A DNA stretch of 63,854 nt, the filler included. It is 4 parts of 4 records of this genome, joined end to end, with 100 filler letters (N's around TTAATTAATTAA, not from the genome) between each part and the next. Parts side by side here need not be neighbours in the genome. Positions count along the whole stretch, not along the records: positions 22,189 to 30,087 come from SRR20825019_2220; 3 more parts are not named here. The stretch is one strand, 5' to 3'. Under the pieces are notes generated by a model. That model was not told the DNA's origin and did not search any database. It worked only from the letters and a program-made list of their open reading frames with translations. Position 1 is the stretch's first letter; each line of letters begins with the position of its first letter. The position numbers were made by a program, and so were the translations under genes. Positions 20,680 to 57,827 of this stretch are shown piece by piece.

Positions 20680-20957
20680 GTCTGCTTCCTGTTTTTTTTG
20701 TTCCCTTATTGTTCTTGTTTGTGGAGGTGTTGGCAAGACCGGACGACATCATATTCAGGTGAGATGCCAAGCGGGTCTTCAAGCGGGATGCAGCCATGCA
20801 ATCCAGCGCTTGTTTCGCGCTGCAATATAAGTATGTTAGCGCCGAGTCATTTTGACACTGCCGGGCCTGAACCGCCCTGGGCTAAATCAACGCAGATTTG
20901 CACGCCTGGCACCGCGCCGTAATAGCGGCGCGCGGCGGACCTGTTCGGAGTCGTTCC

Positions 20958-22088
<1,131 letters not shown>

Positions 22089-22188
22089 NNNNNNNNNNNN
22101 NNNNNNNNNNNNNNNNNNNNNNNNNNNNNNNNTTAATTAATTAANNNNNNNNNNNNNNNNNNNNNNNNNNNNNNNNNNNNNNNNNNNN
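22089..22188. other. Artificial contig linker
   Basis: N-run + TTAATTAATTAA (stops in all six frames) + N-run. Confidence 0.98.
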
Positions 22189-22920
22189 CGCCGGTCACCC
22201 GGACCCAGGTCTGAAACAGGCCGCCGCCCGGCCGGCACCGGGCTCCCCCGGGCCGGCGCGGACGTCCGTCAGTTGGCGCACTACCAACCCCCGAATGGGG
22301 AGCACAATACTCCACACAAACTGAAAAAACTTCGGTCCGGCTTGGAAGTGCGGCGGAGTCCGGCGAGCCCGCGAGGCGATCGTCGAAGGACCTCCGGCTC
22401 GTCGATCGCAGGCTGACCGTGACGCGCGGTCCGCCGGGCCGTATGATGCAGTCCGGCGAGGCGCCGGCGGGCGGTCGCCAGCGGGGCGCGCCCCTCAAGA
22501 ACAGCCGAGTCGTCCTCCTCGCAGTCGCCGACGGCGCGGCCCTCCGTCGGTCAGGCTGTGGGCCACCTCACCACCTGCGCCGCGGCATCCGACCATCCAG
22601 TCGTGTGTGCCGAGAACCGTGGATCGCCGGCGCATCGCGGCCGGCCCCCGGCCAGTCGCCCGGCCGAGTCAGTGGCGGGGGCTCAGCTCCCTCATTGGCC
22701 TAGCCACCAGTGTGCGCACCAGCACTGCAAAACAAACACGACTCACAAACTTGCGCAGCCCGGTCGTCCCAGCCTGGACCGAAAAGAGTCGGCTTTCTCC
22801 TGAGCCAATACACCAGCGAAAAGAAGCGATTCTTGCGGTTATGCAGCAATGGTCTCGCCACACAACACAACGAAATGACTTATATATCCCACTACCAGCT
22901 TTTACATAACAGCCAGCAAA

Positions 22921-23731
22921 ATGTTGTCAAACATCTCCGCTCTTGCCCGCGGCGTCGTGGCCGCCCCCGCTCGCCAGGTGAAGTTCACGACTTGATTTCT
23001 TCTTGAGTGGCTGACTTATTGAATTTTGTCTGAAGGCTGCTCGCGCCAGCTCTGTGCGTCTCATGAGTGACGACCCTCTCGCCGGCACTCAGACCCACGA
23101 GAATCTTCGCTCTGCTTTCTCTGGCGAATCCATGGTACGACGGTTCTGTTTTTCTGCTTTCTGTGCTAAGTTGCTCAACAGGCCAACCGCCGCTACCTTT
23201 ACTACGCCCTCAAGGCCGACGTCGAGGGATACAACGATGTCGCTGCTGTCTTCCGCTCCACTGCTGAGGGCGAGACCGGACACGCCCACGGCCACATGGT
23301 GCGATGATTCCCTGTTTCCAAATAATTTCTGCTCATTGTTTTTTCTCTTTTCTATACCTTTTTGCTTTGATATGCCAGGAGTTCCTTGAGGATGTCGGTG
23401 ACCCCGCCACTGGCCAGCCATTCTCCACTACCGAGGACTGCCTCCGTTCCTCTATTGAGGGCGAGACCTACGAGTATGCTTGCACCGTAACTTCAAAGTC
23501 TGTTGGTGTCTGACGGCCGTGCAGGTATACCGAAATGTACCCTGGCATGGCCAAGACCGCCCGCGAGGAGGGCTTCGATGATATTGCTGACTGGTTTGAT
23601 ACTCTCGCTAAGGTATTTTTAATTGGTCTTATATGAGTACATTGACTGAACCGGCGCTCTCTCTGTCTCTCCAGGCTGAGAAGTCCCATGCCAACCGTTT
23701 CAAGAAGGCCCTGGACAACCTCGACGCCTAA
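22921..23731 (+). CDS. Eukaryotic spliced short-chain rubrerythrin (170 aa) with N-terminal presequence; exons 22921-22977, 23036-23134, 23182-23298, 23379-23473, 23525-23612, 23675-23731
   Basis: Five GT-AG introns of 47-80 nt; spliced product contains [56 protein letters not shown]. Confidence 0.9.
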
Positions 23732-23806
23732 GCGTACTCAGGTTTGTGTGACGACACAGCAATAAAATATGCGCATCAGCACCACTCGCGGTGTCTCTTG
23801 GACCAG

Positions 23807-26800
23807 TCAAGTTCCTTCAAGCTGCTTCTCAACATAGTTCATCTGTAGCCCTAACCTTTTCAACTCGTTCAGGATCTCCCCTAGTGCCTTGGTCTTGTCG
23901 CCTACGTCCATCTTCACAAACCACATATTAGCACGACAACCTTAGGGCACACCTCCCCTCTTACCGCATCGACAACTGACTCAGCTTGCTTGGGATTCAT
24001 CTTGATAAGGCTAGAAACCATTTCCGAGTATTCCCCTTGCCCCTTCCCGGTGGCGGAACGCGATCCCGAAGACAGTTGCCTCAATTCTGTCTGCACCCGT
24101 TCAATCACAGTTAACAGCCCGTGCCGATAGTCAATATTGCTAACAAACCTGCGCGTATTTCAAGTCATTTGTGACAGACTGTTCGGGGGCTTTGTTCAAC
24201 ATGTCACAAGCAAGTACACCTTCCAGCGACATCCGTTCTTTCGGGTCATAACTTGAACAAGTATGTTTCAGCACATGCTTCATCACGCCGAAAAAGCAGG
24301 CTCACCTCAATAACGACACAACCACGTCAACCAGCTCCTTGCTCCACATCTTCTTCATGCCTCGCTCCTCGAGAAGTTTCGGCACTGCCTTCTTACGATG
24401 TTTCTGGGTCCAAGAAGGCATATGAGCATTTCGGTGGAGTAAAAGTGCAGTATTACTGATACCTCTACGCGCTGATACATGTATGGTGATATGCTATAAA
24501 GCGGAAGCTGCAATAACATCTCCAAGACAATACATCCCAAGGCCCACACATCCGTTGCCGCCGAGAAATCTTGAGGATCTGTCAGCACCTTCCATCATCC
24601 ATGCCACATTGTACAGACCTTCCCCTTGCACAAGTTCGGGAGCCCAATATGCTATGGTACCACCAACTGCCTTCTGATCCGAGTCACGCAGGAGCCTGGC
24701 AAGTCCAAAATCCCCAAGCTTGACTGCTCTCTGTGTCATCAGGACGTTCAACGACTTCAAATCCCGATGGAGAATGCCCTGTAATCACTTAAATTAGACC
24801 TTCGTGCCAGACGCAACAACCATGATCATGACCTTCTTGTGACAATGGTCCAGTGCGCTGGCAAGCTGCTTGGTCCAAACCAAGACTTCTGTTTCCAGGG
24901 GCCGGTGTGTCAATGAAGCCAAATACGCCTTAAGACTGGTGCCCTCGCAATACTCGGTCACTGAGGGAGAACGATATAAATTGTGTCCGTTGGCACCAGT
25001 AGCGTCCTTACCAATGTTGACGTAGTAGCATTCGTTCACCTGGTGGATAAATGACTTCATCACACGCAAAACATACGGGTGCTCCAGACGATACAAGGAC
25101 ACTGCCTCATCGTTGGCCTAGGCGGTAATCGGTCAGCGATTCACAGTCATCACAACCCCATTTTCCTACATGATTCACTGCTTGCACATCATCACAGCGA
25201 ATCTGCTTCAAAGCGCAGATCATGTTCCTGCGGTCTTTCACCTGCACGAAGAAATTTTCAATAAGCAATAGAAGGGACCACCCCATGAACGACATCGCAA
25301 CTAACCTGATAGACCTGACCTTGGCCTCCCCTACCCAGTACCTTAATAACAGTGTAACCTCCCACTTTTTCTCCATTGCCGAGCTCTCCAACTCGCCCCG
25401 ATGACCCCTGCGCGCTCATACCGCTAATCCGCTCTCGTACCTGGAAACAGTCAGAACATACATCACCAGAAACTCAGCAATTACCTCAGTCATAATGATG
25501 ATTGCGGCACCAGGGGGTACACCGGCTTCCTTCAGAACGTTTTCATCAATGTGTGGTAGAGCACTGTCCCGAATCTCAGCAGTTTTGAACTTCCTCATAT
25601 GCTGTTTCATGTTTGTTCTCCGTAAAATATCTTCGACTTCTCTATATTCTTTAGACCCGGAGCTCGAAAGCAATGACGTGCTCGATTTCCGTGATTTCGG
25701 TGAAAGTTTGGGCGACCGTGATACATTGCTCCTAGGTGAATCCATAGAGGTTTCTCCTATCCCAGGTCGCAAACCCAGTAAATACTTATTTCACGGTATT
25801 AGTAGAACTACTCACCCTCTGCCGCCCCGGCTGGTGTCTCGGGCTCATCATAGTCGCCCCACCACTTCTTGGCTTCATCGATTGCATCAATCCATGCATT
25901 TCGCCCAGTAGAGGTCGTGTCACTCAAAACAAATATCTTCTGCTTGGATACAACCTTAAAAAGAAACCTTTTCAACATGTCAGAATGGTCTCTATGCCGG
26001 CATGACGTTGGGATGAGTATACCTATTTGCACTTGATCCTAGTTGCTGGCAGCGACATTGTCGAGCATCAATGTGCAGCTTCGGCTCCATATCCTCATTT
26101 GATCTATAGTAATCAAAATGACCACTACAAATAAAAAAGTACCGCATGTTCCACTTCCAAACACGATGCTTGCTCTTCTTGAGTAGAAAGCCGGACCGAA
26201 TCACATCATTTGTCATCATTTCACCTTTAGGCGGGGAATCTTGTCCGACACTGAGAGAGATTAAGGCATTTGGTTTAGGAGGCTTGGCCACCTGATTGTT
26301 CTTCCCCGTGGCTACCGTAGGATACACCTTTGTGGCACCTTCTTCACCTTGTCTATTTGGTCCAAAATTTCCCTTTTCAGTCTTTAACATTGGACTGGGC
26401 AACCAAGATGCTTTCATTTTTGAGTCACCATAATAAGTGGACACGCTTTCACCGTCATTTTGACCTACAAAAGAAGGAATGATTAAATGAGCCAAATAGC
26501 CGGCAGGAGGAATCTTACTATATTGAGAAAGGTGAAGGCCCATTTGCTTCGCAGACTTAGCGGAGGCCACGTTTGTGTTTGCGGCCTTTGCGTTACTCGA
26601 TATGGGCACTGGTCGGGAAGGACTCTCGGTCATAAGTAGGTTGAGACCTGACGGGCTTTGAGTGACAGGAGTGCTGGGAAGGGATGATGCCGCGCCAGCT
26701 CTCGACTTGGACGAAGGGCGGTCGGCCAGAGGCGAGGCCGTTGATGCAAACGGCGGCCTCGATGTCGACCCGCCCCCCATGCTGAATCTTTTTGACGTTG

Positions 26801-28029
26801 TATGTGGCCGCGAATACATCTGGAAAACTTTCGTAAGCATTCTCAAAGCTACGGGGGCTATCCAACCAATACACATACAGCGACATCCTCACTGTCTCCC
26901 TTCTCATCCACATTGGACTGAATCCTCCGATGCCATAAAGATTCTGCAGAGCCTGCGCGCATATCTGTGCTTAGACCAGGCGGGTTCGCCTTTTTCTTCC
27001 CCTTGGCATTTCTCAAATTATCTGCAGACCCGTGCCTCATGAGGTCAAACTCCGAGCTGATATAACCTTGAGACAGACGCCCCATCTTCATATTCATTCA
27101 CATTCACCTTGCTTTCAGAACAGGCCCCTCGGGCATAGGAGCCTTCATTTTGTTCTTTTTCTTCTCTAAACGCTTTTGCTGACGAGTTAACGGTGGTGCC
27201 TTATCCCCATCCATCCACTTTGCTAATGCATGGGCAGCTTTCATATTCAACCTCGACTGTAGCAAAGTTAGAAATCCTATCCGGCGAGTGCATGAACACA
27301 CGGACCTGCGCAATCTGCCGTGGGGTTCTGCCATCTCGTGTGAGAACATCGCCCTCAGCTCCACGGAAGAGCAGGTATTGCACAAGGTCGGCCTTTCCAC
27401 AGTACGCGGCTTCGTGCAGGGGGGTCATGCCCATTTCTAAGATATAACATTAGCAACAGCTCTAACACGGCACTTGGACTTCCCACCATCATCCTTCTGG
27501 CGGTGGTCGGCGCCATAATCCACCAGCAACTGCAATGTATCGACATTACCCTGTTTTGAGCAGGCATGATGCAAAACTCCACGGCCTATTCCATCAGTGG
27601 ACATCACGTCTGCCCCGTGACCTAACAGCACCTTGCAAGCTTCGAGCCGGCCACTCCCTGCTGCCCAAGCCAGTGGCGACGCGCCAAACTAGGGGAAGCC
27701 AATGGTTATCTAACAAAGCAAGACACTACATAACGAAGGAGCGCACCTGATCTCGCGCATCTGGAAAGGCTCCTTTTTCCAGTAGGATGGTGCACAGCTT
27801 GGAGTTTCCTCGCTTTGCCGCCCAGTGAAGAGCAGTGCATCCATCCTAAAATGGGATAAGTCAGCTGTGGCGCAAAAGCTAACCGCAGCAGGCTTACCAC
27901 AGAATGGTTGGGGTCAGCACCACGCTCTAGTGCACTCTTCGCCCAGGTGACGTCCCCAATGCGAGAAGCATAGTTCAACTCGGTATGTTTGTCAACGGTA
28001 TTCTTGCCGTCTGGATTCTGCCCGGACAT
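23807..28029 (-). CDS. Eukaryotic spliced multidomain Ser/Thr kinase: ankyrin repeats, low-complexity linker, PH, SAM-like, NEK-like kinase (about 20 exons; internal boundaries partly approximate)
   Basis: Ankyrin DGCTALHWAAKRG, GASPLAWAA, GMTPLHEAA; PH RSGFLLKK...RNAWIDAI; kinase VLGRGGQG, ALKQI, HRDLKSLN, DFG, APE, DVWALGC, joined by GT-AG introns. Confidence 0.85.
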
Positions 28030-29010
28030 TGCAACAAATAACACCCTAGGACACTAGATGGCCATGTCTCCTTCAGTTAACACGTGCAGGCAGTGGCGAT
28101 GGCGATACAAATACCTCAAAAACCACCTCGAGTTCCTGTCCGGCCCCCGAAAGAGGATGTCTAAAGTTGTTTGCTTTGTGTGCGACGGCCGCCGTGACGC
28201 CGATCTTCAGTCCCAATTAGCGGACGAGCGTCCGGTCCGGTCTTGGTACGGCGCGATGACCTGAAGTCAGCCGCGACCGCACCGTCACGCGGGCCGCCGG
28301 GTCACGCGCAGTCCGGGGCCGAGGGTGACTCTCTGAGGGCCGTTCCCCCGGTGCTCCGCCACTAACAAGGCCCGGGTTGTGGGGGTGGCTCGCCTCCCCA
28401 GCCGCCCGGCCGCCGGCCAGCTGCCGAGCCAGGCCGGGAGGCCGCGCGACCTGACCGGCCGCCCAGACCCGGCGGCCGGGCCGGGGCCGGGGCGGCGCCG
28501 GGCGCCGGCCGGGGCGCCCGCTCACCGCGTGTCCCGGAGCCGCACTCGTCACTCCGGACCCGCCGGCACGCGGCCCTGCCGGACGTCACGGCCGGGCCGG
28601 TCGTCCCCAAGGGGCCGCGCCGCGCCCGGCCGGGCCCCCGGCGCCGCCGCCGCCGGGCCGGCTGGCCGGCGGGCGGCCGCGGCGCGCGCCGGCCCTCAGA
28701 CGGTGACTCGGAATCAATGAATCCGATCAGAAATCCATCCCGGGGCCGTGTGACGGCAGTGCCGCAGCTCGGGAGGACGGGCGTGATGCTAGTGACTGAA
28801 AGTCGTGTGATGCAGTGGCATTTGGTCCGCACTGAGGGCCGGCTCCGTGCCAGCAACCCCGCCCGCCCGGCGCCTCGGCGTTTTACGATCCCCGATGCGC
28901 TTCCGGCCAGCAGCAGACAAAACAGTACAGTGACGGCTATGCGTATTTATTTTTGATCTCTATCCCAACATCCCTATTACAATAAACTACATGATATGTG
29001 TCGCACATGC

Positions 29011-29964
29011 TTATTCGGTCTTCTTGACAGACTTCTTAGAACCCGAGTAGTTCTCCAAGTAGAACTTAACGAAAAGGACCAAGAAGGACAAATACACCGT
29101 GAAGTTGGCACCAAGAGTCCACGGAGCAGAGAAGAAGCCATTCACATAGGTGATGTAAGAGGCATGGCAGAAGATAACAACAAACTGCATGATCTGAGTG
29201 GTGGTTACCAGGTGCTTGACAGAAGACTTGCGGCCAGTGGCGGCGTAGGCGTAGTAGGCGTACTGTCATTCATATTAATATCAAAACAAAATACCGGAAA
29301 AGAATAGCAGTTACCATGATAACGTGAACAAAGCTATTGTAAGCGGCAGTGGTCGAGAACAAAACAGTATCCTCAAAGGGGAGGATGGCCGTCATAAGAG
29401 GAACAGTGGCATGGTGCCAATAGTGCAAGAAAATAATCTTGAGTCCGGGTGTCAGCAACAGTACATAACCACAACTTCAAGTTGACATACATTATGGCCA
29501 CGGAGCATGATGAAGGCAGTGTCCACAAACTCATAGTACTTGGAAACAACAAACACCCAGATCCAGAAACCACTTGAGCCGACAAGGCGGGGAGGAGCCT
29601 TAACGAGACACTCCGAGCCAGTTTCCATGCACACTTCAATCCAGGGAGCAAGGATACCAACGCACATGAAGAGAGAGAGGATGGACAAGAACGAGCTGTG
29701 GATAACAGTCAACCACTTCAACCAAGCCTGGCGAGAGGCATCAGTCTTGGCAGGAGCCATGTTCAACTGCAGTGACTATGAGAAAACGCAAAACTACCGG
29801 GCATGATCACCTACATAAGGCCTGATCGACAAGTAGACCTGAACAAACACCACGTAAATGGTAGAGGCCATAACTGCAAGCCTAGGGTCGGCAAAACCGA
29901 CGTAGGGCTCGTCCAACATGTTGAAGTTGTTGAGGAATGTACGGAACTGCGCGACGGTCTCCAT
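29011..29964 (-). CDS. Eukaryotic spliced ELO/GNS1-SUR4 fatty-acid elongase (266 aa); exons 29964-29815, 29766-29491, 29437-29315, 29262-29011
   Basis: KYYEFVDT, LHYWHH, NSFVHVIMYAYY, TTTQIMQ motifs; C-terminal KKTE ER-retrieval signal; three introns of 48-53 nt. Confidence 0.92.
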
Positions 29965-30087
29965 TACTAAAAGGATTGAAAACTAAAGTGTTCTGATTAC
30001 ACTCTCGCAGTGAGATCACCAACATATAACGTGAGAACCACAACCAACGATGTTAGGGGTGGGAGGGGGGCGGGGGGGGGGGGGGGG

Positions 30088-30187
30088 NNNNNNNNNNNNN
30101 NNNNNNNNNNNNNNNNNNNNNNNNNNNNNNNTTAATTAATTAANNNNNNNNNNNNNNNNNNNNNNNNNNNNNNNNNNNNNNNNNNNN
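30088..30187. other. Artificial contig linker
   Basis: Same N + TTAATTAATTAA + N spacer. Confidence 0.98.
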
Positions 30188-57727: not shown

Positions 57728-57827
57728 NNNNNNNNNNNNNNNNNNNNNNNNNNNNNNNNNNNNNNNNNNNNTTAATTAATTAANNNNNNNNNNNNNNNNN
57801 NNNNNNNNNNNNNNNNNNNNNNNNNNN
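57728..57827. other. Artificial contig linker
   Basis: Same N + TTAATTAATTAA + N spacer. Confidence 0.98.

Follow-up and report, generated by a model that had tools for sequence, protein, structure and literature searches.

A eukaryotic contig within the window (the whole stretch of DNA analysed, 63,854 bases) carries a real, spliced nuclear gene of a microbial eukaryote (22921-23731, + strand). Its product is, judged by sequence, a rubredoxin-less 'aerobic-type' rubrerythrin, as Cardenas et al. 2016 (PMC5114695) use the term, behind an N-terminal extension that probably targets the protein to the mitochondrion. This is an already described kind of protein: mitochondrion-targeted aerobic-type rubrerythrins have been reported from many protists since 2020 (Gray et al. 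2020, BMC Biol 18:22; PMC7050145). In the reading we favour, and regard as likely, the gene encodes a matrix-targeted peroxide scavenger with RFO (Fe-S oxidoreductase) and DUF3501 as electron donors, and is a nuclear-encoded member of the ancestral system described in that paper.

The window is made up of four unrelated contigs joined by three spacers (22089-22188, 30088-30187 and 57728-57827), each consisting of 44 N, TTAATTAATTAA and a further 44 N. The 7.9 kb contig with the rubrerythrin gene (22189-30087) has spacers at both ends and the adjoining contigs are bacterial and unrelated to it. By Pfam content, the contig at 1-22088 (~60% G+C) encodes a chemotaxis receptor, a glycosyltransferase, an aldo-keto reductase and an EF-Tu that is cut by the contig end, and the contig at 57828-63854 carries two-component genes, a response regulator and two 7TMR-DISM histidine kinases. 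The remaining contig (30188-57727, 27.5 kb) is cut within an ABC-transporter gene at its start and within an isocitrate/isopropylmalate dehydrogenase gene at its end. It matches a complete 4.2 Mb bacterial genome (G001, positions 130180-157719) with 100% identity, so that this bacterium was present alongside the eukaryote in the assembly. The other two bacterial contigs are distinct from G001, with local matches of 67-81% only. A Pfam search of the G001 genome gave no match to PF02915 (Rubrerythrin). ORF lists for the window cross the N runs and contain spurious long ORFs (for example 20898-22136). Because the contigs are mixed, the 'same bin' context invoked in the first-pass annotation of this DNA needs caution, and the usable context is 22189-30087 only.

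The rubrerythrin gene consists of six exons that splice to a frame of 513 bases (170 codons and a stop) and are separated by five introns of 58, 47, 80, 51 and 62 bases, all GT..AG; the annotation had described six exons splicing cleanly into 170 aa, and the joined frame is indeed open. Exon 1 (22921-22977) encodes residues 1-19, the first part of the presequence, and is followed by intron 1 (22978-23035; joint 22975/23034, cut +2). Exon 2 (23036-23134, residues 20-52) holds the end of the presequence (23036-23077, to residue ~29-33) and the start of helix A with Glu50. Intron 2 (23135-23181) leads to exon 3 (23182-23298, residues 53-91), which contains the first ExxH motif (Glu83, His86), and intron 3 (23299-23378) to exon 4 (23379-23473), which runs from residue 92 to the second base of codon 123 and covers a loop and the first part of helix C, where Glu120 and Glu123 lie. 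Intron 4 (23474-23524) lies inside this codon, after the second base; an alternative donor for it at 23487 was rejected, as it breaks the frame. Exon 5 (23525-23612) encodes residues 123-152, and beyond intron 5 (23613-23674) exon 6 (23675-23731, residues 153-170) supplies the second ExxH motif (Glu154, His157) and the TAA stop (23729-23731). On the same + strand, an AATAAA 30 bases past the stop (23761-23766) is, from its letters, a candidate poly(A) signal. The G+C content is 60% in the exons and 42% in the introns, with a GC3 of 0.71.

The splicing was followed in the sole public run that contains the stretch (X1, 44% of sampled words), whose Logan contigs were aligned to the eukaryotic contig. 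One 515-letter, cDNA-like contig skips exactly the five predicted introns, so the transcript data bear out the junctions, a check that the annotation had proposed. X1 possibly comes from the same material as the assembly and is independent support for the splicing, not for the sequence. Directly before 22915 the X1 contig carries a loose end, TATCAACGCAGAGTACATGGGG, which we take to be a SMART-type template-switch oligo; loose ends in the X1 contigs look like such an oligo and a Nextera adaptor. X1 is read as a cDNA library on account of the spliced contigs and these adaptor remnants. The mRNA thus starts ~6 bases 5' of the ATG at 22921 (5' UTR 22915-22920, + strand), which makes an upstream ATG impossible; the ATG at 22921 has A at -3.

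Two further genes, both on the minus strand, share the contig. The first (23687-28078, loose end at 28078) has many exons with CT..AC joints, is convergent with the rubrerythrin gene, stops near 23808 and encodes a PH - SAM - protein kinase protein (Pfam PH, SAM_2 and Pkinase). The second (29004-29994; four exons, three joints, loose end at 29994) encodes a GNS1/SUR4 (ELO) fatty-acid elongase of ~266 residues with an HxxHH box (PF01151, E = 1.2e-14 with one exon). Ten further joints listed for X1, all CT..AC, remove introns of 48-59 bases from these two neighbours, and X1 has 12 more joints besides. As the stop codons of the rubrerythrin and kinase genes are ~77 bases apart, their 3' UTRs overlap; so do the transcript contigs, the kinase one reaching into exon 6 of the rubrerythrin gene. 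With many introns of 47-62 bases and a rubrerythrin 5' UTR of ~6 bases, the nuclear genome is apparently very compact. At the contig's left end a low-depth X1 contig (over 22189-22452) continues at 22218 into 255 letters unlike the window, which may be a splice to an exon beyond the contig or a variant join.

The elongase gene gives a hint as to the source organism. A word search with an ELO exon returned 72 candidates, none significant, and a HMMER search of 1.84 billion representative proteins returned 87 matches at E ≤ 0.001, none below 1e-10 (best 46% identity, E = 2e-10). These searches hint at an organism outside the densely sequenced groups, although one fast-evolving paralogue could look alike. 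A fungal origin had been a first impression from intron size and branch-point-like motifs; no result backs it.

Exon 3 alone matches PF02915 with 30.5 bits (cut-off 22.8, E = 5.4e-07); exon 5 reaches 18 bits, below the cut-off, and exons 2 and 4, each searched alone, match no Pfam family. Against the PDB, exon 3 is closest to Burkholderia pseudomallei rubrerythrin (BpRbr; 9ONM/4DI0, E ~3e-21), followed by sulerythrin (1J30, ~7e-15) and, at a distance, the classical rubrerythrins (1RYT/1B71, 3e-4), and the closest bacterial homologue ranks the structures in the same order. The ExxH motifs are at residues 83-86 and 154-157. With Cys112 as its only cysteine the protein has no CxxC pair, hence no rubredoxin domain, and its C-terminus (residue 170) coincides with that of the bacterial proteins of 137-141 residues. 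E50, E83, H86, E120, E123, E154 and H157 are conserved, the identical residue occurring in 174-176 of the 176 distinct prokaryotic homologues in the alignment. At an offset of 30, six of these residues (E50, E83, H86, E120, E154 and H157) align with E20, E53, H56, E90, E124 and H127 of BpRbr, the ligands named in PMC12154734. Residues 34-170 share 74-78% identity with the best-scoring prokaryotic proteins, which are proteobacterial and ~139 residues long. This identity, the ranking of the structures, the kept ligands and the absence of rubredoxin are the grounds for the aerobic-type assignment, and they agree with the annotation, which had seen a short rubrerythrin of bacterial type with both ExxH motifs and no CxxC rubredoxin.

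The database search with exon 3 scored 8000 candidates out of 5.8 billion clusters. Every one of the 120 matches listed is of bacterial type or without a name; identity across them has a median of 73.5% (range 59-77%), and exon 3 itself shares 85-95% identity with most bacterial rubrerythrins in the list. For 119 loci of named prokaryote genomes (GTDB) the median is 73% and the best value 78%. Six of the top-scoring matches, with 207-228 residues (P0005, P0007, P0008, P0012, P0015 and P0018), contain an internal partial duplication, and one has an adaptor-like translated tail; they may reflect misassembly on short contigs instead of real tandem-domain proteins.

Among proteins of known structure, BpRbr (4DI0, 9ONM; PMC12154734) resembles the rubrerythrin here in length class, in its lack of rubredoxin and in the six named ligands, and the solved form is a domain-swapped dimer (PMC12154734). 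It differs in being bacterial, without presequence and without introns, and bacterial genomes usually show its gene linked with those of DUF3501 and RFO (PMC5114695). Sulerythrin of Sulfolobus tokodaii (1J30, 7O8D) is likewise an aerobic-type, rubredoxin-less diiron four-helix protein, with catalase and peroxidase activity as cited in PMC12154734, but comes from an archaeon and is less close to the protein here than the proteobacterial ones are. Classical rubrerythrins (Desulfovibrio vulgaris 1RYT/1B71, Pyrococcus furiosus 1NNQ and those of anaerobic protists) share the PF02915 diiron four-helix domain; unlike the protein here they carry their own C-terminal rubredoxin with CxxC pairs, and their match to exon 3 is far weaker.

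The N-terminal extension is ~31 residues long (about 29-33). Bacterial homologues (137-141 residues) begin at about residue 29-32, with Met29 corresponding to the bacterial start, and none of the 176 aligned prokaryotic homologues has residues opposite positions 1-28. Residues 1-29 comprise 4 Arg, 8 Ala and 4 Ser/Thr with no Asp or Glu, and the extension is without the hydrophobic core of a signal peptide; the annotation's description of an Arg/Ala/Ser-rich segment that is free of acidic residues and similar in composition to a mitochondrial presequence is upheld. Arg27 is located two to three residues N-terminal of the start of the conserved domain, a position that agrees with what we take to be the usual arginine rule of the matrix processing peptidase. 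In a simple test the helical hydrophobic moment of the presequence was not above that of shuffled sequences, 657 of 2000 shuffles reaching the observed value. The composition of the extension, the position of the mRNA start and the literature on homologues together indicate that the predicted presequence probably directs the protein to the mitochondrion.

That literature begins with Andalucia godoyi, whose aerobic-type rubrerythrin carries a mitochondrial presequence by the prediction of Gray et al. (PMC7050145). The same paper names as further holders Amoebozoa, Mantamonas, Rigifila, Diphylleia, malawimonads, Heterolobosea (including Naegleria gruberi), jakobids, Tsukubamonas and hemimastigotes, as well as Ancoracysta, a haptophyte, centrohelids, cryptists, red algae, glaucophytes, a stramenopile and a rhizarian; Opisthokonta, Chloroplastida, Alveolata, Euglenozoa and Metamonada are listed without rubrerythrin, the Opisthokonta lacking all three genes of the system. 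Nearly all the eukaryotic homologues were predicted to be mitochondrial by three programs (PMC7050145, Table S3C). Rubrerythrin usually occurs alongside homologues of DUF3501 and RFO, yet according to Table S3C red algae, a haptophyte, centrohelids and Guillardia have rubrerythrin without either, so that the electron donor of the protein here may be something other than RFO/DUF3501. In the view of Gray et al. the system goes back to the mitochondrial ancestor and is no recent lateral transfer. Their trees of RFO and DUF3501 place the eukaryotes with the alphaproteobacteria; rubrerythrin itself they considered too short for a feasible tree (PMC7050145). Two subsequent publications refer to the system as an ancestral trait of mitochondria (PMC8134430; PMC12699882). 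A literature search on aerobic-type rubrerythrin and on rubrerythrin with DUF3501 and mitochondria found no functional study in a eukaryote, and, as far as PMC7050145 and PMC12154734 say, no measured peroxidase activity is known for any eukaryotic member.

The closest known counterparts of the gene here are those of Andalucia godoyi (ANDGO_07785) and Naegleria gruberi (EFC50160.1), which are likewise nuclear, encode a domain of ~137 residues without a rubredoxin part and, as described for the system, have an N-terminal extension of ~27-33 residues rich in Arg, Ala and Ser (PMC7050145). The Andalucia protein has 164 residues including its presequence, compared with 170 here, and its gene is without introns according to the supplement of PMC7050145, whereas five are present here. 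A further difference is that the published system usually includes DUF3501 and RFO genes, whereas the 7.9 kb contig here otherwise holds only the kinase and ELO genes. The Andalucia protein aligns without gaps to the rubrerythrin here, with 99 of 137 residues identical (72%, counted by hand), compared with up to 78% for bacterial proteins; this comparison involves one eukaryotic sequence. The two proteins also share a helix-A signature (Gly-Glu-Ser-Met before Ala-Asn-Arg-Arg-Tyr), in which Met replaces Gln after the first ligand Glu. Met occurs at this site in 0 of the 120 matches listed from the exon-3 search. The signature was considered as a eukaryotic marker and discarded, since Gly-Glu-Ser-Met turned up in at least 120 loci (L021-L140) when GTDB, with one genome for each prokaryote species, was scanned for the pattern; the variant is thus widespread in prokaryotes, its carriers including Rhodanobacter, Thioalkalivibrio, Tepidimonas, Acidobacteriota, several alphaproteobacterial bins, a Rickettsiales bin and archaea such as Vulcanisaeta and Halorubrum. 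Because the signature has this spread and the Andalucia protein is no closer than the bacterial ones, membership of a single eukaryotic clade does not follow from the sequence. A search with exon 2 (presequence and helix A) returned six candidates, none significant, and no eukaryotic relative.

The annotation had called for a phylogeny of the spliced protein. A quick maximum-likelihood tree was made of the rubrerythrin here and 72 prokaryotic proteins (rows of 130-175 residues were kept, 47 of 119 being omitted). The protein has no supported (starred) sister among these 72 rows, and its end branch measures 0.8 changes per column where the median is 0.048; the nearest rows are a mix of gamma- and alphaproteobacteria. 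No donor above 78% identity was found among the 8000 candidates scored from 5.8 billion clusters or among the 119 GTDB loci. With a best identity of 78%, a long end branch and no supported sister, these comparisons give no sign of a recent bacterial donor. Five introns and the compositional fit of the gene argue for a long residence in the eukaryotic nucleus. Descent from the mitochondrial ancestor, as we infer it, is drawn from the published interpretation of the system (PMC7050145). The annotation had offered lateral acquisition as its new point, which is not supported as written, given that interpretation, the lack of a close donor in these searches and the long end branch. It had also set against its own reading a placement within an already described, vertically inherited eukaryotic clade; the literature and the likeness to its members point to such a placement, while the tree here contains prokaryotes only.

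If our favoured reading is correct, the product would be a ferritin-like four-helix diiron protein of ~140 residues behind a cleavable targeting peptide of ~29-33 residues, which most likely directs it to the mitochondrial matrix. There it would probably form a domain-swapped dimer, as do its solved bacterial and archaeal relatives, and its predicted role is to remove hydrogen peroxide, as a diiron peroxidase or in a catalase-like manner. Electrons would most likely come from RFO and DUF3501, its companions in bacteria and in other protists. By suggesting a link to DUF3501 and an Fe-S oxidoreductase the annotation had followed the right lead, the trio being reported in protists (PMC7050145) and linked in bacterial genomes (PMC5114695); the unknown electron donor that it put forward as new is not supported as written, as PMC7050145 already pairs rubrerythrin with DUF3501 and RFO.

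A lineage-specific lateral transfer from a proteobacterium, independent of the other eukaryotes and followed by the gain of introns and presequence, is in our view unlikely. It would account for a protein that is slightly closer to proteobacterial sequences than to Andalucia, and for an exon 3 so similar to most of the listed bacterial proteins; the rubrerythrin tree lacks resolution at this point, and PMC7050145 judges the protein too short for a feasible one. The transferred gene would, however, have had to acquire five spliceosomal introns in 513 coding bases and to adapt its exon G+C and third codon positions, and the best candidate for a donor reaches no more than 78% in either search. 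The long end branch without a starred sister speaks against such a transfer as well, as does the occurrence of rubrerythrin with a presequence across many eukaryotic supergroups, together with the RFO and DUF3501 trees that unite eukaryotes with the alphaproteobacteria (PMC7050145).

The same protein might instead act elsewhere, in a plastid or, through initiation at Met29, in the cytosol, the N-terminal stretch then being no mitochondrial signal. We consider this improbable. Met29 is placed exactly at the start of the bacterial protein, the amphipathicity of the presequence does not exceed that of shuffled sequences and rubrerythrin relatives are found in glaucophyte plastids (PMC7050145); against these points, the mRNA starts 6 bases before a Met1 that has A at -3, the short extension contains Arg and Ala but neither an acidic residue nor a hydrophobic signal-peptide core, and the three programs place nearly all eukaryotic homologues in the mitochondrion (PMC7050145). 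That the gene is non-functional, whether as an assembly artefact, a contaminant chimera or a decaying copy, is very improbable. Such a suspicion arises from a window that joins contigs of several organisms and from a run that possibly shares its material with the assembly, but a single contig holds the whole gene, splicing yields an open frame, every ligand position is kept and spliced transcript-like contigs cover both it and its two neighbours; the bacterium that was co-assembled, G001, has no PF02915 match that could have contributed it.

A matrix-targeted member of the published ancestral system remains our preferred explanation, and under it the rubrerythrin gene leaves existing knowledge unchanged and is filed as a further member of the eukaryotic type described in PMC7050145. 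More would follow if the contig came from a lineage in which no aerobic-type rubrerythrin has been reported, either a fungus-like or other opisthokont relative or a deep, unsampled protist group. We regard this as rather unlikely; the opisthokont candidate would be notable since Gray et al. list Opisthokonta without all three genes (PMC7050145), and if the contig did come from such a lineage and the organism also lacked DUF3501 and RFO, a different mitochondrial reductant would be needed for rubrerythrin. As it stands, the gene is a further genomic example, with confirmed introns, of the bacterial-style rubrerythrin that protists retain in a patchy fashion, probably in the mitochondrion. For the eukaryotic proteins the substrate and the donor roles of RFO and DUF3501 are predicted ones throughout the family, and because their biochemistry is still at the stage of prediction the intact, expressible sequence described here is of some practical use.
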